Shown: one piece after another, positions 2,748 through 41,742 of the stretch
Layout of the letters: each line of letters begins with the position of its first letter
How positions within the stretch are numbered: position 1 is the first letter of the stretch
Source of the DNA: a virus
Lineage: Duplodnaviria; Heunggongvirae; Uroviricota; Caudoviricetes
DNA: 41,742 bases
Direction: 5' to 3' (one strand)
Virus record (IMG/VR): IMGVR_UViG_2541047836_000006
Translations under genes and position numbers: made by a program
The notes under the pieces: generated by a model
The model's database searches: none
What the model was told of the DNA's origin: nothing
The model's input: only the letters and a program-made list of their open reading frames with translations

Positions 2748-3428
2748 TCATCGCCATTGCTCCCCAAATACAAAACCAATTTCAGCCAGTGCCTCGTCCA
2801 TTTTTTCGATGAACTCCGGCACCATCTCGTCAAAACTCGCCATGTACTTTTCATCCCGCTCAACCACGACATAATGCAGTCCTTCACGCTTCATACGCGG
2901 GTCATAGTTGGCAAAGTACCAGGCATCTTTTCGTGTCACCCACATGCTGTACTGCACCTGGGCCATGTAAGCCGACTTTATGGCCTCGAAACCACCGAGC
3001 CGGAACTTCATGAAATCCCGGGAGGTAAACGGGCATTTCAGCTCAAGGCCATTGCCGTCACTGCATAAACCATCGGGAGAGCAGGCGGTGCGCATACTTT
3101 CGTCGCGATAGATGATCGGGGATTCAGTAACATTCACGCCGGAAGTGAATTCAAACAGAGTTCTGGCGTCGTTCTCGTACTGTTTTCCCCAGGCCAGCGC
3201 CTTAGCATTAACTTCCGGAGCCACACCGGTGCAAACCTCAGCCAGCAGGGTGTGGAAGTAGGACATTTTCATGTCAGGCCACTTCTTTCCTGAGCGGGGC
3301 TTTGCTATCACGTTGTGAACTTGTGAAGCGGTGATGACGCCGAGCCGTAATTTGTGCCACGCATCATCTCCCTGCTCGATAGCTCTCACGTCGATCCCGG
3401 TACGCTGCAGGATAATGTCCGGTGTCAT
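2748..3428 (-). CDS. exo: Lambda exonuclease (Red alpha)
   Basis: 226-aa protein [30 protein letters not shown]… essentially identical to remembered lambda Exo; ATGA overlap with bet. Confidence 0.97.
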
Positions 3429-4210
3429 GCTGCCACCTTCTGTTCAGTGGCTTTTTGTTTCAGGAATCCAAGAGCTTTCACTGCTTCGTCCTGTGTCAGT
3501 TCTGACGATGCACGAATGTCGCGGCGAAATATCTGGGAACAGAGCGGCAATAAGTCGTCATCCCATGTTTTATCCAGGGCGATCAGCAGAGTGTTAATCT
3601 CCTGCATGGTTTCATCGTTAACCGGAGTGATGTCGCGTTCCGGCTGACGTTCTGCAGTGTATGCGGTATTTTCGACAATGCGCTCGGCTTCATCCTTGTC
3701 ATAGATACCAGCAAATCCGAAGGCGAGACGGGCACACTGAATCATGGCTTTATGCCGTAACATCCGTTTGGGATGCGACTGCCACGGCCCCGTGATTTCT
3801 CTGCCTTCGCGAGTTTTGAATGGTTCGCGGCGGCATTCATCCATCCATTCGGTAACGCAGATCGGATGATTACGGTCCTTGCGGTAAATCCGGCATGTAC
3901 AGGATTCATTGTCCTGCTCAAAGTCCATGCCATCAAACTGCTGGTTTTCATTGATGATGCGGGACCAGCCATCAACGCCCACCACCGGAACGATGCCGTT
4001 CTGCTTATCAGGGAAGGCGTAAATTTCTTTCGTCCACGGATTAAGGCCGTACTGGTTGGCGACGATCAACAATGCGATGAACTGCGCATCGCTGGCATCA
4101 CCTTTAAATGCCGTCTGGCGAAGAGTGGTGATCAGTTCCTGTGGGTCGACAGAATCCATGCCGACACGTTCAGCCAGCTTCCCTGCCAGCGTTGCGAGTG
4201 CTGTACTCAT
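3425..4210 (-). CDS. bet: Bet single-strand annealing protein (Red beta)
   Basis: 261-aa protein [37 protein letters not shown]… matches lambda Bet. Confidence 0.97.
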
Positions 4211-4215
4211 CCGTT

Positions 4216-4632
4216 TTATACCTCTGAATCAATATCAACCTGGTGGTGAGCAATGGTTTCAACCATGTACCGGATGTGTTCTGCCATGCGCTCCTGAAAC
4301 TCAACATCGTCATCAAACGCACGGGTAATGGCTTTTTTGCTGGCCCCGTGGCGTTGCAAATGATCGATGCATAGCGATTCAAACAGGTGCTGGGGCAGGC
4401 CTTTTTCCATGTCGTCTGCCAGTTCTGCCTCTTTCTCTTCACGGGCGATCTGCTGGTAGTGACGCGCCCAGCTCTGAGCCTCAAGACGATCCTGAATGTA
4501 ATAAGCGTTCATGGCTGAACTCCTGAAATAGCTGTGAAAATATCGCCCGCGAAATGCCGGGCTGATTAGGAAAACAGGAAAGGGGGTTAGTGAATGCTTT
4601 TGCTTGATCTCAGTTTCAGTATTAATATCCAT
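4216..4632 (-). CDS. gam: Gam, RecBCD inhibitor
   Basis: 138-aa protein [61 protein letters not shown]… matches lambda Gam. Confidence 0.95.
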
Positions 4633-4730
4633 TTTTTATAAGCGTCGACGGCCTCACGAAACATCTTTTCATCGCCAATAAAAGTGGCGATAGTGAATTT
4701 AGTCTGGATAGCCATAAGTGTTTGATCCAT
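4587..4730 (-). CDS. kil: Kil (host cell-division inhibitor)
   Basis: 47-aa protein [47 protein letters not shown] from internal ATG (4728-4730) of the 89-aa track ORF; matches lambda Kil. Confidence 0.85.
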
Positions 4731-4863
4731 TTTTTGGGACTCCTGGCTGATTAAGTATGTCGATAAGGCGTTTCCATCCGTCACGTAATTTACGGGTGAT
4801 TCGTTCAAGTAAAGATTCGGAAGGGCAGCCAGCAACAGGCCACCCTGCAATGGCATATTGCAT
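4699..4863 (-). CDS. cIII: cIII (FtsH/HflB inhibitor, stabilises cII)
   Basis: Hand translation of minus strand from ATG at 4861-4863 gives [54 protein letters not shown] (54 aa), matching lambda cIII; absent from the ORF track because it is under 60 aa. Confidence 0.85.
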   Translation of the reverse strand: MQYAIAGWPVAGCPSESLLERITRKLRDGWKRLIDILNQPGVPKNGSNTYGYPD

Positions 4864-4935
4864 GGTGTGCTCCTTATTTATACATAACGAAAAACGCCTC
4901 GAGTGAAGCGTTATTGGTATGCGGTAACGCCGCGC

Positions 4936-5304
4936 TCAGGCGGCTTTGATAGTCATATCATCTGAATCAAATATTCCTGATGTATCGATATCGGTAATTC
5001 TTATTCCTTCGCTACCATCCATTGGAGGCCATCCTTCCTGACCATTTCCATCATTCCAGTCGAACTCACACACAACACCATATGCATTTAAGTCGCTTGA
5101 AATTGCTATAAGCAGAGCATGTTGCGCCAGCATGATTAATACAGCATTTAATACAGAGCCGTGTTTATTGAGTCGGTATTCAGAGTCTGACCAGAAATTA
5201 TTAATCTGGTGAAGTTTTTCCTCTGTCATTACGTCATGGTCGATTTCAATTTCTATTGATGCTTTCCAGTCGTAATCAATGATGTATTTTTTGATGTTTG
5301 ACAT
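4936..5304 (-). CDS. ea10: Ea10 (lambda Ssb-like early protein)
   Basis: 122-aa ORF at the lambda ea10 position; length and sequence consistent with lambda Ea10. Confidence 0.8.
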   Translation of the reverse strand: MSNIKKYIIDYDWKASIEIEIDHDVMTEEKLHQINNFWSDSEYRLNKHGSVLNAVLIMLAQHALLIAISSDLNAYGVVCEFDWNDGNGQEGWPPMDGSEGIRITDIDTSGIFDSDDMTIKAA

Positions 5305-10294: not shown

Positions 10295-10992
10295 AAAACA
10301 TCGCCGCACAGATGGTTAACTTTGACCGTGAGCAGATGCGTCGGATCGCCAACAACATGCCGGAACAGTACGACGAAAAGCCACAGGTACAGCAGGTAGC
10401 GCAGATCATCAACGGTGTGTTCAGCCAGTTACTGGCAACTTTCCCGGCGAGCCTGGCTAACCGTGACCAGAACGAACTGAACGAAATCCGCCGCCAGTGG
10501 GTTCTGGCTTTCCGGGAAAACGGGATCACCACAATGGAACAGGTTAACGCAGGAATGCGCGTAGCCCGTCGGCAGAATCGACCATTTCTGCCATCACCCG
10601 GGCAGTTTGTTGCATGGTGCCGGGAAGAAGCATCCGTTATCGCCGGACTGCCAAACGTCAGCGAGCTGGTTGATATGGTTTACGAGTATTGCCGGAAGCG
10701 AGGCCTGTATCCGGATGCGGAGTCTTATCCGTGGAAATCAAATGCGCACTACTGGCTGGTTACCAACCTGTATCAGAACATGCGGGCCAATGCGCTTACT
10801 GATGCGGAATTACGCCGTAAGGCCGCAGATGAGCTTGTCCATATGACTGCGAGAATTAACCGTGGTGAGGCGATCCCTGAACCAGTAAAACAACTTCCTG
10901 TCATGGGCGGTAGACCTCTAAATCGTGCACAGGCTCTGGCGAAGATCGCAGAAATCAAAGCTAAGTTCGGACTGAAAGGAGCAAGTGTATGA
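10291..10992 (+). CDS. P: Replication protein P (DnaB helicase loader)
   Basis: 233-aa protein MKNIAAQMVNFDREQMRRIANNMPEQYDEKPQVQQ… matches lambda P; ATGA overlap with O. Confidence 0.95.
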   Translation: MKNIAAQMVNFDREQMRRIANNMPEQYDEKPQVQQVAQIINGVFSQLLATFPASLANRDQNELNEIRRQWVLAFRENGITTMEQVNAGMRVARRQNRPFLPSPGQFVAWCREEASVIAGLPNVSELVDMVYEYCRKRGLYPDAESYPWKSNAHYWLVTNLYQNMRANALTDAELRRKAADELVHMTARINRGEAIPEPVKQLPVMGGRPLNRAQALAKIAEIKAKFGLKGASV

Positions 10993-29431: not shown

Positions 29432-29847
29432 GTTTTGCCCTGAAACTGGCGCGTGAGATGGGGCGACCTGACTGGCGCGCCATGCTTGCCGGGATGTCAT
29501 CCACAGAGTATGCCGACTGGCACCGCTTTTACAGTACCCATTATTTTCATGATGTTCTGCTGGATATGCACTTTTCCGGGCTGACGTACACCGTGCTCAG
29601 CCTGTTTTTCAGCGATCCGGATATGCATCCGCTGGATTTCAGTCTGCTGAACCGGCGTGAGGCTGACGAAGAGCCTGAAGATGATGTGCTGATGCAGAAA
29701 GCGGCAGGGCTTGCCGGAGGCGTCCGCTTTGCCCCGGACGGAAATGAAGTTATCCCCGCTTCCCCGGATATGGCGGGCATGACGGAGGATGACGTAATGC
29801 TGATGACAGTATCAGAAGGGATCGCAGGAGGAGTCCGGTATGGCTGA
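29009..29847 (+). CDS. T: G-T tail assembly chaperone fusion made by programmed -1 ribosomal frameshift
   Basis: Slippery heptamer G GGA AAG at 29407-29413 in the G zero frame; the -1 frame continues as the T ORF (track ORF 29413..29847, …FALKLAREMGRPDWRAMLAGMSSTEYADWHRFY…), as in lambda. Confidence 0.8.
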
Positions 29848-32419
29848 ACCGGTAGGCGATCTGGTCGTTGATTTAAGTCTGGATGCGGCCAGATTTGACG
29901 AGCAGATGGCCAGAGTCAGGCGTCATTTTTCCGGTACGGAAAGTGATGCGAAAAAAACAGCGGCAGTCGTTGAACAGTCGCTGAGCCGACAGGCGCTGGC
30001 TGCACAGAAAGCGGGGATTTCCGTCGGGCAGTATAAAGCTGCCATGCGTATGCTGCCTGCGCAGTTCACTGACGTGGCCACGCAGCTTGCAGGCGGGCAA
30101 AGTCCGTGGCTGATCCTGCTGCAACAGGGTGGTCAGGTGAAGGACTCCTTCGGCGGGATGATCCCCATGTTCAGGGGGCTTGCCGGTGCGATCACCCTGC
30201 CGATGGTCGGGGCCACCTCGCTGGCGGTGGCGACCGGTGCGCTGGCGTATGCCTGGTATCAGGGCAACTCAACCCTGTCCGATTTCAATAAAACGCTGGT
30301 CCTTTCCGGTAATCAGGCGGGACTGACGGCAGATCGTATGCTGGCCCTGTCCAGATCCGGGCAGGCGGCAGGGCTGACGTTTAACCAGACCAGCGAGTCA
30401 CTGACGGCGCTGGTGAATGCCGGTGTGCGTGGTGGTGAGCAGTTTGAGGCAATCAGCCAGAGTGTGGCGCGTTTCTCCTCTGCATCCGGCGTGGAGGTGG
30501 ACAAGGTCGCTGAAGCCTTCGGGAAGCTGACCACTGACCCGACGTCTGGGTTGACGGCGATGGCGCGCCAGTTCCATAACGTGACGGCGGAACAGATTGC
30601 GTATGTTGCTCAGTTGCAGCGTTCCGGCGATGGGGCCGGGGCATTGCAGGCGGCGAACGAGGCCGCAACGAAAGGGTTTGATGACCAGACCCGTAAACTG
30701 AAAGATAACATGGGTACGCTGGAGACCTGGGCAGACAAGACTGCACAGGCATTCAAATCCATGTGGGATGCGGTGCTGGATATTGGTCGCCCGGACTCCT
30801 CTGCAGATATGCTCGCCAAAGCTGAAAAGGCTTTTGATGAAGCGGATAAAAAATGGCAGTGGTATCAGAGCCGAAGCCACCGGCGCGGTAAAACGTCAGC
30901 ATTTCTTGCCAATCTCCGGGGGGCATGGGAGAAGAGAGAGAATGCGCGACTTGGGCTTTCAGCCGCCACGTTGCAGGCAGATCTTGAAAAGGCCAGTGAG
31001 ATGGCAGCAAAAGATCGGGCCGAGTCTGAGGCATCACGGCTGAAATATACCGAAGAGGCGCAGAAGGCTTACGAACGCCTGCAGACACCGCTGGAGAAAT
31101 ATACCGCCCGCCAGGAGGAACTGAATAAGGCACTGAAAGACGGAAAAATCCTGCAGGCAGATTACAACACGCTGATGGCGGCGGCGAAAAAGGACTATGA
31201 AGCGACGCTGAAAAAGCCGAAGCAGTCCGGCGTGAAAGTGTCTGCGGGCGATCGTCAGGAAGACAGTGCTCATGCTGCCCTGCTGACGCTTCAGGCAGAA
31301 CTCCGGACACTGGAGAAGCATGCCGGAGCGAATGAGAAAATCAGCCAGCAGCGCCGGGATTTGTGGAAGGCGGAAAGTCAGTTCGCGGTACTGGAGGAGG
31401 CGGCGCAACGTCGCCAGCTGTCCGCACAGGAGAAATCCCTGCTGGCGCATAAAGATGAGACGCTGGAGTACAAACGCCAGCTGGCTGCACTTGGCGATAA
31501 GGTCACGTATCAGGAGCACCTGAACGCGCTGGCGCAGCAGGCGGATAAATTCGCACAGCAGCAACGGGCAAAACGGGCAGCCATTGAGGCGAAAAACCGG
31601 GGGCTGACTGACCGGCAGGCAGCGCGGGACGCCACGGAACAGCGCCTGAAGGAACAGTATGGCGATAATCCGCTGGCGCTGAATAGCGTCATGTCAGAGC
31701 AGAAAAAGACCTGGGCGGCTGAAGACCAGCTTCGCGGGAGCTGGATGGCAGGCCTCAGGTCAGGCTGGAGTGAGTGGGAAGAGAGCGCCACGGACAGTAT
31801 GTCGCAGGTTAAAAGTGCAGCCACGCAGACCTTTGATGGTATTGCACAGAATATGGCGGCGATGCTGACCGGCAGTGAACAGAACTGGCGCAGCTTCACC
31901 CGTTCCGTGCTGTCCATGATGACAGAAATTCTGCTTAAGCAGGCAATGGTGGGGATTGTCGGGAGTATCGGCAGCGCCATTGGAGGTGCTACCGGTGGCG
32001 GCTCATCAGCGTCAGGTGGTGCAGCCATTCAGGCCGCTGCGGCGAAACTCCATTTTGCGACCGGAGGATTTACGGGAACCGGCGGCAAATATGAGCCAGC
32101 AGGGATTGTTCACCGTGGTGAATTTGTCTTCACGAAGGAGGCAACCAGCCGGATTGGCGTGGGGAATCTTTACCGGCTGATGCGCGGCTATGCCACCGGC
32201 GGTTATGTCGGTACACCGGGCAGCATGGCGGACAGTCGGTCGCAGGCGTCCGGGAAGTTTGAGCAGAATAACCATGTGGTGATTAACAACGACGGCACGA
32301 ACGGTCAGATAGGGCCACAGGCGCTGAAGGCGGTTTATGACGTAGCCCGTAAGGCGGCAATGGATGTTGTGACCGGGCAGATGCGTGATGGTGGTCTGTT
32401 CTCCGGAGGTGGACGATGA
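29840..32419 (+). CDS. H: Tail tape-measure protein H
   Basis: 859-aa protein MAEPVGDLVVDLSLDAARFDEQMARVRRHFSGTESDAKKTAAVVEQ… matches lambda gpH. Confidence 0.95.
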   Translation: MAEPVGDLVVDLSLDAARFDEQMARVRRHFSGTESDAKKTAAVVEQSLSRQALAAQKAGISVGQYKAAMRMLPAQFTDVATQLAGGQSPWLILLQQGGQVKDSFGGMIPMFRGLAGAITLPMVGATSLAVATGALAYAWYQGNSTLSDFNKTLVLSGNQAGLTADRMLALSRSGQAAGLTFNQTSESLTALVNAGVRGGEQFEAISQSVARFSSASGVEVDKVAEAFGKLTTDPTSGLTAMARQFHNVTAEQIAYVAQLQRSGDGAGALQAANEAATKGFDDQTRKLKDNMGTLETWADKTAQAFKSMWDAVLDIGRPDSSADMLAKAEKAFDEADKKWQWYQSRSHRRGKTSAFLANLRGAWEKRENARLGLSAATLQADLEKASEMAAKDRAESEASRLKYTEEAQKAYERLQTPLEKYTARQEELNKALKDGKILQADYNTLMAAAKKDYEATLKKPKQSGVKVSAGDRQEDSAHAALLTLQAELRTLEKHAGANEKISQQRRDLWKAESQFAVLEEAAQRRQLSAQEKSLLAHKDETLEYKRQLAALGDKVTYQEHLNALAQQADKFAQQQRAKRAAIEAKNRGLTDRQAARDATEQRLKEQYGDNPLALNSVMSEQKKTWAAEDQLRGSWMAGLRSGWSEWEESATDSMSQVKSAATQTFDGIAQNMAAMLTGSEQNWRSFTRSVLSMMTEILLKQAMVGIVGSIGSAIGGATGGGSSASGGAAIQAAAAKLHFATGGFTGTGGKYEPAGIVHRGEFVFTKEATSRIGVGNLYRLMRGYATGGYVGTPGSMADSRSQASGKFEQNNHVVINNDGTNGQIGPQALKAVYDVARKAAMDVVTGQMRDGGLFSGGGR

Positions 32420-34821: not shown

Positions 34822-37800
34822 ATGGGTAAAGGCAGCAGTAAGGGGCATACCCCGCGCGAAGCGAAGGACAACCTGAAGTCCACGCAGCTGCTGAGTGTGA
34901 TCGATGCCATCAGCGAAGGGCCGGTTGAAGGTCCGGTGGATGGATTAAAAAGCGTGCTGCTGAACAGTACGCCGGTGCTGGACAGTGAGGGGAATACCAA
35001 TATCTTCGGTGTCACGGTGGTGTTCCGGGCAGGTGAGCAGGAGCAGACTCCGCCGGAGGGGTTTGAATCCTCCGGCTCCGAGACGGTGCTGGGTACGGAA
35101 GTGAAATATGACATGCCGATCACCCGCACCATCACGTCGGCAAACATCGACCGTCTGCGCTTTACTTTCGGCGTGCAGGCACTGGTGGAAACTACCTCAA
35201 AGGGGGACAGGAATCCGTCGGAAGTCCGTCTGCTGGTTCAGATACAGCGTAATGGTGGCTGGGTGACGGAAAAAGACATCACCATTAAAGGCAAAACCAC
35301 CTCGCAGTATCTGGCCTCGGTGGTGGTGGATAACCTGCCGCCGCGCCCGTTTAATATCCGGATGCGCAGGATGACGCCGGACAGCACCACAGACCAGCTG
35401 CAGAACAAAACGCTCTGGTCGTCATACACCGAAATCATCGATGTGAAACAGGGCTACCCGAACACGGCACTGGTCGGCGTGCAGGTGGACTCGGAACAGT
35501 TCGGCAGTCAGCAGGTGAGCCGTAATTATCATCTTCGCGGGCGCATTCTGCAGGTGCCGTCGAACTATAACCCGCAGACGCGGCAATACAGCGGTATCTG
35601 GGACGGAACGTTAAAACCGGCATACAGCAACAACATGGCCTGGTGTCTGTGGGATATGCTGACCCATCCGCGCTACGGCATGGGAAAACGTCTTGGTGCG
35701 GCGGATGTGGATAAATGGGCGCTGTATGTCATCGGCCAGTACTGCGACCAGTCGGTGCCGGACGGCTTTGGCGGCACGGAGCCGCGCATTACCTGTAATG
35801 CGTACCTGACCACACAGCGCAAGGCGTGGGATGTGCTCAGTGATTTCTGCTCGGCGATGCGCTGTATGCCGGTATGGAACGGGCAGACGCTGACGTTCGT
35901 GCAGGACCGACCATCAGATAAGGTGTGGACCTATAACCGCAGTAATGTGGTGATGCCGGATGATGGCGCGCCGTTCCGCTACAGCTTCAGCGCCCTGAAG
36001 GACCGCCATAATGCCGTTGAGGTGAACTGGATTGACCCGGATAACGGCTGGGAGACGGCGACAGAGCTCGTGGAGGATACGCAGGCCATTGCCCGTTACG
36101 GTCGTAATGTCACGAAGATGGATGCCTTTGGCTGTACCAGTCGGGGGCAGGCACACCGCGCCGGGCTGTGGCTGATTAAAACGGAACTGCTGGAAACGCA
36201 GACCGTGGATTTCAGCGTCGGCGCAGAAGGGCTTCGCCATGTACCGGGCGATGTTATTGAAATCTGTGATGATGACTATGCCGGTATCAGCACCGGTGGT
36301 CGTGTGCTGGCGGTGAACAGCCAGACCCGGACGCTGACGCTCGACCGTGAAATCACGCTGCCATCCTCCGGTACCACGCTGATAAGCCTGGTTGACGGAA
36401 GTGGCAATCCGGTCAGCGTGGAGGTTCAGTCCGTCACCGACGGCGTGAAGGTAAAAGTGAGCCGTGTTCCTGACGGTGTTGCTGAATACAGCGTATGGGG
36501 GCTGAAGCTGCCGACGCTGCGCCAGCGCCTGTTCCGCTGTGTGAGTATCCGGGAGAACGATGACGGTACGTATGCCATCACCGCCGTGCAGCATGTACCG
36601 GAAAAAGAAGCCATCGTGGATAACGGGGCGCACTTTGACGGCGACCAGAGCGGCACGGTGAATGGTGTCACGCCGCCAGCGGTGCAGCACCTGACCGCCG
36701 AAGTCACCACAGACAGCGGGGAATATCAGGTGCTGGCGCGATGGGACACGCCGAAGGTGGTGAAGGGCGTGAGCTTCCTGCTTCGCCTTACCGTGGCAGC
36801 GGACGACGGCAGTGAGCGGCTGGTCAGCATGGCCCGGACGACGGAAACCACATACCGCTTCAGGCAACTGGCGCTGGGGAACTACAGGCTGACAGTCCGG
36901 GCGGTAAATGCGTGGGGGCAGCAGGGCGATCCGGCATCGGTATCGTTCCGGATTGCCGCACCGGCAGCGCCGTCGCAGATTGAGCTGACACCGGGGTATT
37001 TTCAGATAACCGCCACGCCCCATCTTGCCGTTTATGATCCGACGGTACAGTTTGAGTTCTGGTTCTCGGAAAAGCGGATTGCGGATATCAGGCAGGTTGA
37101 AACCACAGCCCGCTATCTTGGCACGGCGCTGTACTGGATAGCTGCCAGTATCAATATCAAACCGGGCCATGATTATTATTTTTACATCCGCAGTGTGAAC
37201 ACCGTTGGCAAATCGGCATTTGTGGAGGCTGTTGGCCAGCCGAGTGATGATGCATCCGGCTATCTGGATTTTTTCAAAGGCGAGATAGGGAAAAGCCATC
37301 TGGCTCAGGAGCTGTGGACGCAGATTGATAACGGTCAGCTTGCGCCTGACCTGGCTGAAATCAGGACGTCCATTACGGATGTCAGCAATGAAATCACGCA
37401 GACCGTCAATAAGAAACTGGAAGACCAGAGTGCGGCAATTCAGCAGATACAGAAGGTTCAGGTTGATACAAATAATAACCTGAACAGCATGTGGGCTGTG
37501 AAGCTGCAGCAGATGCAGGACGGACGCCTTTATATCGCGGGTATTGGTGCCGGTATTGAGAACACCCCTGACGGCATGCAGAGTCAGGTGCTGCTGGCGG
37601 CGGACAGGATTGCGATGATTAATCCTGCGAATGGCAATACAAAGCCGATGTTTGTTGGGCAGGGCGATCAGATATTCATGAACGAAGTGTTCCTGAAATA
37701 TCTGACGGCTCCCACCATTACCAGCGGTGGCAATCCCCCAACGTTTTCACTGACACCTGATGGTCGACTTTCTGCGAGAAATGCGGATATCAGCGGTAAC

Positions 37801-38304
37801 GTGAATGCGAACTCCGGGACGCTCAATAATGTCACGATTAACCAGAACTGTCGGATTCTGGGAAAACTGTCAGCTAACCAGATTGAAGGTGATATTGTCA
37901 AAACGGTGGGAAAAGCCTTTCCGAGAAATGGCAGTTATGCCAGCGGTACAATAACGGTCACTGTGTACGATGACCAGGCTTTTGACCGTCAGATAGTCGT
38001 CCCCCCCGTTCTGTTTCGCGGTGGTAAGCATGAAAACTTCAACAGCAACAACCAACAGTCATACTGGTATTCAACCTGTAAGCTGCAGGTGCTGAAGAAC
38101 GGACAGGAAATCTTTCAGCAACCCGCGACGGATGTCAGCAGGGTATTTTCATCAGTCATTGATATGCCTGCCGGACACGGCCATGTCACCCTGACTTTCA
38201 ATGTTTCTTCATATGGTGCAAATAACTGGACGCCAACGACCAGTATCAGCGACCTTCTTGTTGTCGTGATGAAGAAATCAACAGCCGGCATCAGTATCAG
38301 TTGA
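34822..38304 (+). CDS. J: Central tail fibre / host specificity protein J (lambda-like, divergent C-terminal receptor-binding region)
   Basis: 1160-aa protein; N-terminal ~850 aa match lambda J ([34 protein letters not shown]…); the C-terminal ~300 aa diverge from remembered lambda J. Confidence 0.95.
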
Positions 38305-38348: not shown

Positions 38349-39376
38349 TTTGTGGAGTGAATATGGCAGTACAGATTTCAGGTGTGCTGAAAGACGGTGC
38401 AGGAAAACCGATACAGAACTGCACCATTCAGCTCAAAGCAAAACGTAACAGCACCACAGTTGTGGTGAACACGGTGGCCTCAGAAAATCCGGATGAAGCC
38501 GGACGTTACAGCATGGATGTTGAGTATGGCCAGTACAGCGTCGCCCTGCTGGTTGAAGGTTTTCCGCCTTCACATGCCGGGACCATCACCGTGTATGAGG
38601 ATTCTAAGCCGGGGACATTGAATGATTTTCTGGGCGCTGCAACAGAAGATGATGTTTGTCCGGAGGCACTGTATCGTTTTGAAAAGATGGTGGAAGAGGC
38701 GGCACGCAACGCTGAAGCCGCCTCTCAGAGCGCAGCGGCAGCAAAGAAATCAGAAACAGCAGCGGCATCGTCCAGGAACGCGGCGAAAACATCAGAGACG
38801 AATGCAGGTAACAGCGCGAAAGCGGCAGCTTCTTCAAAAACAGCCGCACAAAACGCAGCAACAGCGGCAGAACGTTCAGAGACAAATGCCCGTGCGTCAG
38901 AAGAAGCCTCCGCAGACAGTGAAGAGGCTTCCCGCCGTAATGCAGAGTCAGCCGCTGAAAATGCCGGAGTCGCCACCACAAAAGCGCGGGAGGCCGCAGC
39001 AGACGCAACAAAGGCCGGGCAGAAAAAGGATGAGGCTCTGTCGGCAGCGACACGAGCTGAAAAGGCGGCAGACCGCGCAGAAGCCGCAGCGGAAGTGACT
39101 GCAGAGCCCTGTGCGAATATAGTGCCGCCGCTGCCTGATGTGTGGATACCGTTTAACGATTCACTGGATATGATTACGGGTTTTTCGCCATCTTATAAAA
39201 AGATAGTTATTGGTGACGATGAAATAACAATGCCAGGCGACAAGATTGTTAAGTTTAAACGTGCTTCAACAGCAACGTATATTAATAAGTCCGGCCAACT
39301 CAAGCTTGCTGAAGTTGACGAACCGCGATTTGAGCGCGATGGCTTATTGATTGAAGGACAGGGTAATGACTCCAAC

Positions 39377-39880
39377 TTATTGATAGTGTTTTATGTTCAG
39401 ATAATGCCCGATGACTTTGTCATGCAGCTCCACCGATTTTGAGAACGACAGCGACTTCCGTCCCAGCCGTGCCAGGTGCTGCCTCAGATTCAGGTTATGC
39501 CGCTCAATTCGCTGCGTATATCGCTTGCTGATTACGTGCAGCTTTCCCTTCAGGCGGGATTCATACAGCGGCCAGCCATCCGTCATCCATATCACCACGT
39601 CAAAGGGTGACAGCAGGCTCATAAGACGCCCCAGCGTCGCCATAGTGCGTTCACCGAATACGTGCGCAACAACCGTCTTCCGGAGCCTGTCATACGCGTA
39701 AAACAGCCAGCGCTGGCGCGATTTAGCCCCGACGTATCCCCACTGTTCGTCCATTTCCGCGCAGACGATGACGTCACTGCCCGGCTGTATGCGCGAGGTT
39801 ACCGACTGCGGCCTGAGTTTTTTAAATGGCGGAAAATCGTGTTGAGGCCAACGCCCATAATGCGGGCGGTTGCCCGGCAT
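39377..39880 (-). CDS. insB: IS1 InsB (transposase catalytic part, expressed as InsAB' by -1 frameshift)
   Basis: 167-aa ORF …[59 protein letters not shown]… matching IS1 InsB; overlaps the insA 3' end. Confidence 0.85.
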
Positions 39881-40074
39881 CCAACGCCATTCATGGCCAT
39901 ATCAATGATTTTCTGGTGCGTACCGGGTTGAGAAGCGGTGTAAGTGAACTGCAGTTGCCATGTTTTACGGCAGTGAGAGCAGAGATAGCGCTGATGTCCG
40001 GCGGTGCTTTTGCCGTTACGCACCACCCCGTCAGTAGCTGAACAGGAGGGACAGCTGATAGAAACAGAAGCCAC
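39799..40074 (-). CDS. insA: IS1 InsA (transposition repressor / N-terminal part of InsAB' transposase)
   Basis: 91-aa protein [91 protein letters not shown], the canonical IS1 InsA. Confidence 0.9.
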
Positions 40075-41157
40075 TGGAGCACCTCAAAAACACCATCATA
40101 CACTAAATCAGTAAGTTGGCAGCATCACCGAAGGACAGAGGACAAATTATCTGAGGAACTCAAATAAACCAGACTCATGGACTGTTCATTCCGCACTGAA
40201 TAAAACATTTGGCACTGATAAACAGGGGTTCAATTATGCCACGGTGACACCCACGGAAAGTATAGTGGGAACAACAGGTGGCTATACTGTGCATGGTGTG
40301 GTTGCAGCAGACAGATTCCCGCTGGCAAGTGGTGAATGTTTCACTTTTTCGTGCCGGGTTAAAGGCGCTAAAGCACGATGCAGGTTAAGAGTTTCAGTTA
40401 TTATTGGTGGAACAGATACCTTCTCTGCTGACTCTTATCTTGATCTGGATACCCGGATCGCAACAGTAAGCGGTAATACATCCCTTATAACAGCCAAAGC
40501 TGAACAACAGGGCGAGTGGACCTACTATGAGGCCACTTATACAGCTAATACGGACATTGATACCGTTAACTGTGCTTTTTATATGACAAATAAAATAAGT
40601 AATGAGCCATTCTATGATGACTCAACATTAACCATGACGACGCCGCAAATTGAACTGGGCAATACGGCATCGTCATTTATTGTAACTACAATGCCAACAA
40701 CACGCGCAAGTGATGTAGTTACTATCCCATCGCAGAATAACCTGTCAACACGGCCTTTTACGGTATTGTGCGAAGTAAGCAGGAACTGGAGTACACCGCC
40801 CAATGTTGCGCCAAGGATATTTGATGTTGGAGGGCACAGTATTGATGATAATTATTTATCGCTGGGGTTTGTTGCAACAGGAAAGATAAGCGCCAACGTA
40901 GGAATGGTTCAGCCACAAATTGCCTCAGATGGAGAAAGGTTCATTGTGGGTGTGAGAGCTAAATCTGATTTATCAGTAAATGCAATATGCAATGGTAATT
41001 ATACAACAAACCTTAATGGTAAAATATTTGGAGTTACAGCAACATCGTACCGGTTTGGTGGGCAGACCGCAGCAGGAACGCGTCATTTGTTTGGACACAT
41101 CAGAAATTTCAGAGTCTGGTTTAAAGAATTAAATGACAGGCAAATCAAGGAGGCAGT

Positions 41158-41436
41158 ATGAAAGATTTAACTTTGAAATTTCCTGGTAACAGAGAGTTTA
41201 AATCCTTCCTGTCATCTCTTGACTGGGAGGAGGATGAAGACCTCCAGAATAAACTGTTAGTCGATGAAATTGGTTTCACCTACACAGAAACAGGGGTAAC
41301 AGAAGAGGGAGAACCTGTCTGTGTCCGGAATGACGGTTATTTTGTCAACATTCGCATTCTTGATGACTTGTTTGATGTTTCTGTATTCTCTGATTATGTC
41401 GTGGAGCTGGAAACACCGCTTCGGGAATGGAGCTGA
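41158..41436 (+). CDS. Hypothetical acidic small protein downstream of tail fibre (possible tail-fibre chaperone or cargo gene)
   Basis: 92-aa ORF with strong SD (AAGGAGG); ATGA overlap with the tail fibre stop; no resemblance to lambda Tfa. Confidence 0.55.
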   Translation: MKDLTLKFPGNREFKSFLSSLDWEEDEDLQNKLLVDEIGFTYTETGVTEEGEPVCVRNDGYFVNIRILDDLFDVSVFSDYVVELETPLREWS

Positions 41437-41448
41437 AAGGAGGAAATA

Positions 41449-41742
41449 ATGGATATAAGCCCCTTACTTCATGCACTTTGTGCTGTGGCTGCGCAGATAC
41501 TGGTTGGTCTTTTTACCGGAAACTGGGCTTACGGAGCGATAGCCGGTTGTACGTTCTTCATTGCGCGTGAACATACCCAGGCAGAATATCGCTGGATTGA
41601 AATGTTCGGGCATGGCAAGCGAATGAATATGCCGTGGTGGGGCGGTTTTGATCCGCGAGCTTGGGATGTGGCAAGCCTGATGGATTTTGCTGTGCCGGTG
41701 GTGGCGTGTCTGCTGGTCTGGCTGTTGGTTAATCGTGGGTGA
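41449..41742 (+). CDS. Hypothetical small integral membrane protein (about 3 predicted TM segments)
   Basis: 97-aa ORF with strong SD (GGAGGAAATAATG); hydrophobic stretches ALCAVAAQILVGLFTG, AYGAIAGCTFFIA and LMDFAVPVVACLLVWLLV; stop at window end. Confidence 0.55.
   Translation: MDISPLLHALCAVAAQILVGLFTGNWAYGAIAGCTFFIAREHTQAEYRWIEMFGHGKRMNMPWWGGFDPRAWDVASLMDFAVPVVACLLVWLLVNRG

Follow-up and report, generated by a model that had tools for sequence, protein, structure and literature searches.

A side tail fibre gene interrupted by IS1 in an Escherichia coli prophage of the phage-21/1H12 type that carries sitABCD

The side tail fibres of phage lambda speed up adsorption 10–30 fold and leave the number of plaques unaffected (PMC12617516); stf and tfa are both non-essential (PMC10695390), and neither Stf nor Tfa has been found in the virions of the frameshifted laboratory lambda (PMC10721106). 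The insertion sequence IS1, in turn, is represented by IS1A and IS1E of E. coli K-12 and by the copy that resides in phage P1, which have in common with the element described here their length, imperfect ends, an insA/insB pair joined by frameshifting at an A6C motif and a 9-bp target duplication. Here, we describe a locus at which an IS1 copy interrupts a stf gene, an allele for which a literature search returned no description, and we compare it with these known systems. The sequence analysed, hereafter the window, is a stretch of 41,742 nt.

The window belongs to a lambdoid prophage of E. coli of the phage-21/1H12-like, sitABCD-carrying type. Apart from the insertion, it is 99.98% identical to, and collinear with, phage 1H12 (NC_049947), and the int, xis, repressor, O/P, Q, lysis, head and tail genes all keep the order that they have in that phage. 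J occupies positions 34822–38304 and stf begins at 38363, just downstream of J in the late operon, as is the case in 1H12 and phage 21. The features of the interrupted region are collected in Table 1.

Table 1. Features of the interrupted stf region, with positions in the window
Feature	Position	Strand	Remarks
stf 5′ part, codons 1–333	38363–39361	+	identical to nt 1–999 of 1H12 gp23
chimeric truncated ORF	38363–39442	+	333 Stf and 26 IS1-encoded residues, then stop; 359 aa (translation)
left 9-bp target duplication GAAGGACAG	39353–39361		single copy in empty sites
complete IS1	39362–40129	minus	768 bp, oriented against stf and the late transcript; ends those of annotated elements
IS1 right inverted repeat (IRR)	39362–39384		wild-type; differs from the P1 copy only at P1's annotated mutant base
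insB frame	39377–39880	minus	167 aa; DDE_Tnp_IS1
insA	39799–40074	minus	91 aa; Zn_ribbon_InsA and HTH_Tnp_IS1 (Zn-ribbon and HTH)
AAAAAAC (A6C) programmed –1 frameshift motif	39817–39823	minus	IS1 coordinates 307–313
IS1 left inverted repeat (IRL)	40107–40129		overlaps weak insA promoter
right 9-bp target duplication GAAGGACAG	40130–40138		single copy in empty sites
orphaned stf 3′ part, codons 334–673 and stop	40139–41161	+	identical to nt 1000–2022 of 1H12 gp23
conserved 92-aa gene	41158–41436	+	overlaps stf stop (ATGA); PHROG 1361, unknown function
conserved 97-aa gene	41449–41742	+	putative membrane protein by phage 21 annotation

A first-pass annotation of the window had proposed that a complete 768-bp IS1, with intact terminal repeats and with insA and insB on the minus strand, had recently transposed into stf between perfect 9-bp direct repeats and truncated the fibre, and the follow-up analysis agrees with it on all of these points. 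The window contains the 9-mer GAAGGACAG at two places, separated by 777 bp, and at no other place on either strand (0.26 copies are expected from shuffles); it is found once in each of 14 empty-site sequences inspected directly, and in the intact alleles it runs straight into AGGACAAATT. IS1 starts on a codon boundary of stf (codon 334), in a modestly AT-rich target (42–45% GC vs. 50.7% for the whole window). The target flank also shares a 9-nt match, CTTATTGAT, with the IRR of IS1, a coincidence that is not above chance in this region. The description of the insertion as “in frame” stands as arithmetic, in that 768 and 9 make 777 and positions 40130–41161 are open in the frame of stf, but it carries no biological meaning, because 777 bp is what any 768-bp IS1 adds when it duplicates 9 bp of its target; moreover, a read-through product is impossible because of the eight IS1 stop codons that lie in the stf frame. 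Similarly, the 27 codons by which stf was said to continue into IS1 are correct if the stop is counted, the sense codons being 26.

We also considered whether IS1 lies at the joint between conserved and variable fibre modules, and this idea was rejected: when aligned, the fibre genes of Perceval, 4C10 and phage 21 are highly similar to this one up to about nt 800–840, beyond which identity decays gradually, and the phage matches that end at query nt 998 do so because IS1 interrupts the query and for no other reason.

The ends of the element coincide with those of IS1A (NC_000913 19796–20563) and of the annotated 768-bp IS1 of phage P1. It is identical to IS1A at 761 of 768 positions (99.1%), with wild-type ends and none of the seven differences inside them, and to the P1 copy at 766 of 768 (99.7%, two differences). 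The ends (GGTAATGACTCC... and GGTGATGCTGCC...) form imperfect repeats of about 23 bp with the canonical imperfect pairing (18 of 23 positions complementary). The two minus-strand genes were recognized by the Pfam families PF03811, PF12759 and PF03400 and by NCBIfam NF033558, and a –1 shift at AAAAAAC (IS1 coordinate 307) fuses them into a 232-aa InsAB′ transposase; motif and product both match the description of IS1 in PMC12428005, which also gives the position of the insA promoter at the IRL, in or near which a weak promoter-like match was found on the minus strand (40122–40095). Judged from its sequence, in which every determinant is intact, this IS1 copy looks competent for transposition. 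The element is multi-copy and the assemblies are short-read drafts, and its interior sequence may therefore represent a consensus over more than one copy.

The 5′ part of stf encodes the collar/attachment domain, a linker, an Ala-rich segment, which in Ur-lambda is a coiled coil, and the first residues of the distal module, which is divergent. The N-terminus matches Pfam phage_tail_N (PF08400) over residues 1–131 (E = 2.8e-67), and residues 1–94 match the gpStfN collar in chain 9e7m_Ta of gpStf (E = 3.9e-50), 9e7m being the structure of Ur-lambda (PMC12617516). The truncated Stf retains the collar domain and the Ala-rich segment, and the whole distal half is gone. In the intact protein, residues 329–523 match the NCBIfam model GTA_spike_fiber (E = 3.5e-18), and a Pfam match to CBM_4_9 remained sub-threshold; the head spike fibre of RcGTA binds capsular polysaccharide (PMC10218006), and the lost GTA-head-spike-fibre-like domain is probably sugar-binding. 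A search of PDB sequences with the distal half gave nothing meaningful (best E = 0.5), and a single-sequence AlphaFold2 model of it reached a mean pLDDT of 35.9, too low to be used. This domain and the C-terminal region make up the orphaned 3′ part, which has no translation start of its own in its frame context.

No tfa homologue follows stf, and the products of the 92-aa and 97-aa genes are without Pfam or NCBIfam matches and fall in PHROGs of unknown function. A fibre of this type may need no Tfa-like protein for its folding; alternatively, the 92-aa product may act as a chaperone that has escaped recognition. After the insertion, the 92-aa gene is possibly subject to polarity or deprived of translational coupling, and antitermination of the late transcript by Q would probably lessen the polarity on both small downstream genes.

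The history of the locus was reconstructed by comparing its flanks with relatives lacking IS1. Removal in silico of IS1 and one GAAGGACAG restores an ORF of 2,022 nt (673 aa) that is identical at all 2,022 positions to 1H12 gp23 and to a prophage gene of E. coli 118UI, each of which is one 673-aa ORF with one copy of GAAGGACAG. Of 5,426 complete E. coli genomes, 517 (~10%) carry this fibre allele; the intact protein occurs on at least 1,000 contigs, and the stf::IS1 allele was absent from all of those 5,426 genomes. Metagenome contigs, GTDB species representatives and IMG/VR, scanned for exact matches to the left junction of the occupied site, gave none, and a pattern derived from the window retrieved 12 IMG/VR contigs that have this distal module, every one of them with an empty site. 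Three NCBI draft genomes of clinical E. coli, HVH 45 and HVH 208 among them, are the only ones in which the exact 359-aa chimeric protein was found; one such locus (L005, GCA_000459215.1) is identical to the window across 9,380 nt and then continues into sitDCBA. The three carriers may be one clone, and therefore they represent independent assemblies but not independent events. The identity of the reconstruction and the confinement of the insertion to three draft genomes bear out the recent transposition proposed at first. The event is young and lineage-restricted, the two flanks and the remainder of the prophage being practically the same as in the plaque-forming 1H12.

Several other explanations of the locus were weighed. 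The possibility that the 9-mer is a native or chance repeat, with the true boundaries of IS1 elsewhere, gains some plausibility from the seven direct-repeat families of 9–15 nt in the 1.5 kb around IS1, where short repeats are common; however, the comparison with empty sites has already refuted it, as the intact alleles hold a single 9-mer, the ends of the 768-bp element are those of the annotated IS1A and P1 copies and the spacing is exactly 777 bp, and its probability is practically nil. Scarcely more credible is an assembly artefact, in which an error of repeat resolution would have placed an IS1 copy inside the stf of a draft genome. IS1 is indeed multi-copy, a combined query matching 5,400 of the 5,426 E. 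coli genomes at a median of 13 places, and the source assemblies are scaffold-level drafts; against this, the element is bounded at both junctions by a perfect 9-bp duplication, the 9-mer of which empty sites hold just once, a pattern that a mis-join would not make, and the same junction and identical chimeric protein recur in three genomes deposited separately, where the contigs exceed 1 Mb. The two objections that had been foreseen for the first-pass reading, a native duplicate and an artefact, thus both failed.

Other alternatives accept the insertion and differ on what it does. The fibre might work as a split or re-initiated protein, its N-terminal fragment attached to the tail and a C-terminal fragment, translated on its own, providing the binding, or an outward promoter of IS1 might drive the distal part together with the genes that follow it: no stop interrupts the distal part from 40130 onwards, a GTG lies inside it at 40244, a gene caller predicted from it a 298-aa product, and a promoter-like match lies at 40209–40237. 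We regard this as very improbable, considering that promoter-like sites are at chance level (five found vs. 4.2 expected), the matches near IS1 to terminators and to promoters, outward or hybrid, being likewise no more than shuffles give, that a C-terminal fragment would have neither collar nor shaft with which to attach, and that a comparably split lambda stf yields no Stf in virions (PMC10721106). The disruption could instead have been selected rather than neutral, fibre loss benefiting the phage or the lysogen in this lineage, in keeping with independent disruptions of the same stretch of the gene by IS5 at nt 923 (EC1) and by a foreign tail after about residue 354 (P0011); yet EC1 is the sole interrupted case among the best 40 of the 517 allele-carrying complete genomes, the intact protein is widespread as given above, and the GC content of the target fits plain target preference, all of which makes selection quite unlikely. 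Finally, many E. coli prophages are decayed, and an insertion into an already defective prophage would be inconsequential; this is unlikely here, as the 58 mapped CDSs of 1H12 all remain open in the window and together differ by a single amino acid, the ORF of the tape measure is unbroken and the modules are collinear.

Ordinary transposition of IS1 at stf codon 333/334, with truncation of the fibre and, as a consequence that we infer, virions without side fibres, is in our judgement highly probable. What the sequence shows is that IS1 transposed into codon 333/334 and duplicated the 9-bp GAAGGACAG, and that translation of stf now stops 26 codons inside the element, giving a 359-aa product without the distal half. 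By analogy with laboratory lambda, which forms plaques although its virions have neither Stf nor Tfa, induced particles would assemble normally, carry no side fibres and infect through J alone, and such fibre-less phage would adsorb more slowly and/or lose fibre-dependent hosts. We accordingly predict viable virions without side fibres and with slower adsorption or fewer hosts, and an effect of the truncation on host range is plausible. With IS1, the genome would measure ~47.5 kb and still be packageable, and therefore the element could travel with the phage; reversion would require a rare deletion between the 9-bp repeats. A bolder reading, which we offer tentatively and consider rather doubtful, is that the prophage is fully inducible and infectious in its fibre-less state and acts as a natural vehicle delivering a transposition-competent IS1 and sitABCD to new E. 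coli. If true, horizontal acquisition of the IS1-marked phage, rather than clonal descent, could account for the three carriers, and the lectin-like fibre would be dispensable even on natural, encapsulated hosts.

The stf::IS1 allele is an unremarkable mutation, in which a known element has acted in a known way, and its practical value is modest, with no new mechanism or open question raised. Nevertheless, the insertion would mark a natural fibre-less variant of a very common, ExPEC-associated, sitABCD-carrying phage type; culture collections already hold isogenic phages with the intact gene, which could complete a pair for probing the role of the lectin-like fibre in adsorption and host range on natural isolates. 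It also offers an example of IS elements hitch-hiking in dispensable phage genes.

Among known systems, the IS1 of P1 resembles the present one in that both reside in a phage genome, and only the location differs, apart from the mutant base in an inverted repeat of the P1 copy, where the element described here has the wild-type base. Phage 1H12, isolated and plaque-forming, provides with gp23 the exact uninterrupted allele. Phage 21 has the same gene order (J, stf, the 92-aa ORF, the 97-aa ORF, sitDCBA) and a Stf (OL657228 CPT_21_22) that is 98–100% identical over the N-terminal ~800 nt, whereas its distal module shares only ~40–50% nucleotide identity with the fibre described here. In E. coli EC1 (NZ_CP058574.1), the same gene, with flanks 100% identical, is interrupted by IS5 76 nt upstream of the IS1 site, with the 4-bp duplication typical of IS5: another element at another site, and an independent event. 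Laboratory lambda (lambda PaPa), set against Ur-lambda, is a further comparison: the stf of a lambdoid phage is likewise truncated past its N-terminal part (orf-401 there, 333 native residues here), the N-terminal collars are homologous (9e7m), and the lambda virions are viable, fibre-less and slower to adsorb. The lesion in lambda PaPa, however, is a 1-nt frameshift and not an IS insertion, and the distal module of lambda Stf is gp37-like and OmpC-binding, unrelated to the GTA-head-spike-fibre-like module found here, which no tfa follows; the lambda distal module being unrelated, the fibre of this prophage could therefore matter more on encapsulated or O-antigen-bearing natural hosts.

The side tail fibre gene (stf) of this lambdoid prophage is interrupted by a complete 768-bp IS1, for which all of the coordinates proposed from the sequence were reproduced by direct reading and computation. 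Removal of the element and of one copy of the flanking 9-mer GAAGGACAG leaves an ORF of 2,022 nt (673 codons). Two uninterrupted genes agree with it at 2,022/2,022 positions: gp23 ("tail protein") of phage isolate 1H12 (NC_049947) and a prophage gene in E. coli 118UI, both having one GAAGGACAG and no internal stops. The identical 9-bp repeats are thereby confirmed as a duplication of a sequence that is single-copy in uninterrupted alleles, and the first-pass reading of an IS1 transposition into stf holds, since the excised reconstruction matches both genes. The comparison with IS1-free relatives, set beforehand as the check, gave empty sites with one 9-mer copy each.

Features of the interrupted stf region
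Feature	Window coordinates	Strand	Description
9-bp direct repeats GAAGGACAG	39353-39361 and 40130-40138		flanking IS1
IS1	39362-40129	minus (insA/insB)	768 bp
insA	40074..39799	minus	91 aa; Pfam Zn_ribbon_InsA and HTH_Tnp_IS1, NCBIfam transpos_IS1
insB	39880..39377	minus	167 aa; Pfam DDE_Tnp_IS1, NCBIfam transpos_IS1
AAAAAAC slippery motif	39823..39817	minus	IS1 coordinate 307
92-aa gene	41158-41436		overlaps stf stop (ATGA); PHROG 1361, unknown function
97-aa gene	41449-41742		PHROG 1443, unknown function

By everything tested the element belongs to IS1. It terminates in GGTAATGACTCCAACTTATTGAT and the reverse complement of GGTGATGCTGCCAACTTACTGAT, an imperfect 23-bp inverted repeat (18/23 positions matching), and a –1 shift at the slippery motif yields a reconstructed 232-aa InsAB', of the same length and layout as given in a recent IS1 paper (PMC12428005). 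It differs from K-12 IS1A at 7/768 positions, all of them away from the ends; against the annotated phage P1 copy there are two differences in 768. One position in the inverted repeat of the P1 copy is recorded as a mutation, and there the window IS1 carries the wild-type base.

The allele is common: 517 of the 5,426 complete E. coli genomes carry it, and at least 1,000 contigs encode the intact protein; the IMG/VR contigs with the same distal module all have empty sites (12/12). The occupied form was found in none of the 5,426 complete genomes, and a sequence scan of metagenome contigs, GTDB species representatives and IMG/VR did not find its left junction. Deposits of the chimeric protein (333 Stf and 26 IS1-encoded residues) come from exactly three clinical draft genomes, with E. 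coli HVH 45 and HVH 208 among them, and the locus in GCA_000459215.1 equals the window over 9,380 nt before continuing into sitDCBA. An assembly artefact is excluded for practical purposes because the same two junctions occur in three separately deposited genomes and the target duplication is single-copy elsewhere. Another possibility, that the site coincides with a joint in the mosaic fibre gene, is rejected, since the stretch of high identity to phage 21 runs only to nt ~800-840, short of the IS1 site.

The target 9-mer GAAGGACAG occurs twice in the window, counting both strands (0.26 expected from shuffles), and has G as first and last base; its surroundings are modestly AT-rich (42-45% GC within 25-100 nt either side, 50.7% for the window), in agreement with the IS1 target preferences of the older literature. 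A second 9-mer, CTTATTGAT (39343-39351), 2 bp upstream of the duplication, also occurs within the right inverted repeat of IS1 (39376-39384); this match is at chance level, repeats this long being common by chance in the region.

Other interruptions of stf are rare among carriers (best 40 of the 517 complete genomes). E. coli EC1 (NZ_CP058574.1) has an independent IS5 at stf nt 923, 76 nt upstream of the IS1 site, adding 1,199 bp with a 4-bp duplication and flanks 100% identical. Furthermore, a 380-aa protein of other E. coli strains (MCP3506042.1 / WP_251265204.1) acquires the foreign tail MKWSTKTGHRVRVFSSIDFPIRLVVT after residue ~354, perhaps the mark of a third mobile element, distinct from IS1 and IS5, inserted in this part of the gene. 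Many 'partial' Stf proteins (P0003-P0007, P0010, P0014) are 273-300 aa long, ending where the N-terminal module common to lambdoid prophages at 98-100% identity ends (residues ~273-300, nt ~800-840); they are therefore probably contig breaks at a repeat boundary, real truncations being unlikely.

The first IS1 base is the exact start of stf codon 334. Reading on in the stf frame takes in 26 IS1 codons before the stop at 39440-39442; the element holds eight stops in this frame. The truncation of the side tail fibre proposed from the sequence is borne out, the distal domain being lost. The insertion was also described as in frame; IS1 plus the duplication do add a multiple of three, but so does every 768 + 9 bp insertion, and the point matters only trivially, in that precise excision restores the gene. 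In intact Stf, Pfam phage_tail_N covers residues 1-131, and residues 1-94 align (E = 4e-50) with 9e7m chain Ta, the N-terminal domain of Ur-lambda gpStf; that domain builds a dodecameric collar where gpV meets gpM and anchors four trimeric fibres (PMC12617516). The Ala-rich segment that follows is probably a coiled coil, like the proximal one of Ur-lambda gpStf. Since NCBIfam GTA_spike_fiber spans residues 329-523, IS1 interrupts the distal domain right where it begins. From this one family match the domain is presumably sugar-binding, as capsular polysaccharide is what the RcGTA head spike fibre binds (PMC10218006); a carbohydrate-binding-module match at residues 442-483 is sub-threshold.

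RefSeq/PGAP splits the uninterrupted 2,022-nt stf of E. coli 118UI (NZ_CP032515.1; positions 3001-5022 of the extracted locus) into two pseudogene fragments, labelled 'prophage tail fiber N-terminal domain... missing C-terminus' and 'phage head spike fiber domain... missing N-terminus', and most RefSeq matches of the complete-genome searches are annotated likewise. The reading frame runs unbroken through 673 aa without an internal stop, so these calls are an annotation artefact in hundreds of genomes.

The window spans the prophage from int to just beyond stf and is collinear with, and 99.98% identical to, 1H12 (genus Jouyvirus, phage 21 group), IS1 being the sole structural difference; there are eight point differences, one of them a 1-nt indel. 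Phages of this type have been isolated from infant gut E. coli, commonly with sitABCD (PMC6969025). All mapped 1H12 CDSs (58/58) are open in the window, and given this and the collinearity the prophage, apart from stf, looks fully functional as judged from its sequence. Across the 58 proteins the only amino-acid difference is C211G in the central tail fibre J (window 35452). The tape-measure ORF (29840-32419, 859 aa) is whole in the window, whereas the 1H12 record splits it into two CDSs by an extra C at position 10738 (window 30039), likely a sequencing error.

The gene belongs to the lambdoid Stf family by everything tested, with one exception: Pfam, NCBIfam and PHROG searches revealed no recognisable tfa chaperone gene after stf. 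Where lambda has tfa stand the 92-aa and 97-aa genes, both conserved in phage 21 and 1H12, whose proteins have no Pfam or NCBIfam matches; the 92-aa protein could be an unrecognised fibre chaperone. IS1 is classically polar, and here its orientation is opposite to that of late transcription; the phage, however, has a gene for a Q-like antiterminator, and terminators are read through by Q-modified polymerase. For this reason both small genes, with a Shine-Dalgarno sequence of their own, are probably still expressed.

With the insertion the phage genome would measure 46,703 + 777 = 47,480 bp, smaller than lambda, and should be packageable within lambda limits, so IS1 could travel in virions. Precise IS1 excision between 9-bp repeats is known and rare, and the P1 ref function reportedly stimulates IS1 excision. 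The literature searched contains no account of the stf::IS1 allele; the insertion is real, correctly read, recent and ordinary, with nothing mechanistically new. We expect stf::IS1 particles to be fibre-less yet viable, dependent on J and adsorbing more slowly, possibly with fewer hosts among natural isolates. This expectation follows the precedent of laboratory lambda, in which stf is truncated by a frameshift after ~401 codons, and whose virions lack Stf and Tfa by mass spectrometry and retain adsorption (PMC10721106); in lambda, stf and tfa are non-essential in a genome-wide knock-down (PMC10695390), and side fibres make adsorption 10-30 fold faster with plaque counts unchanged (PMC12617516).
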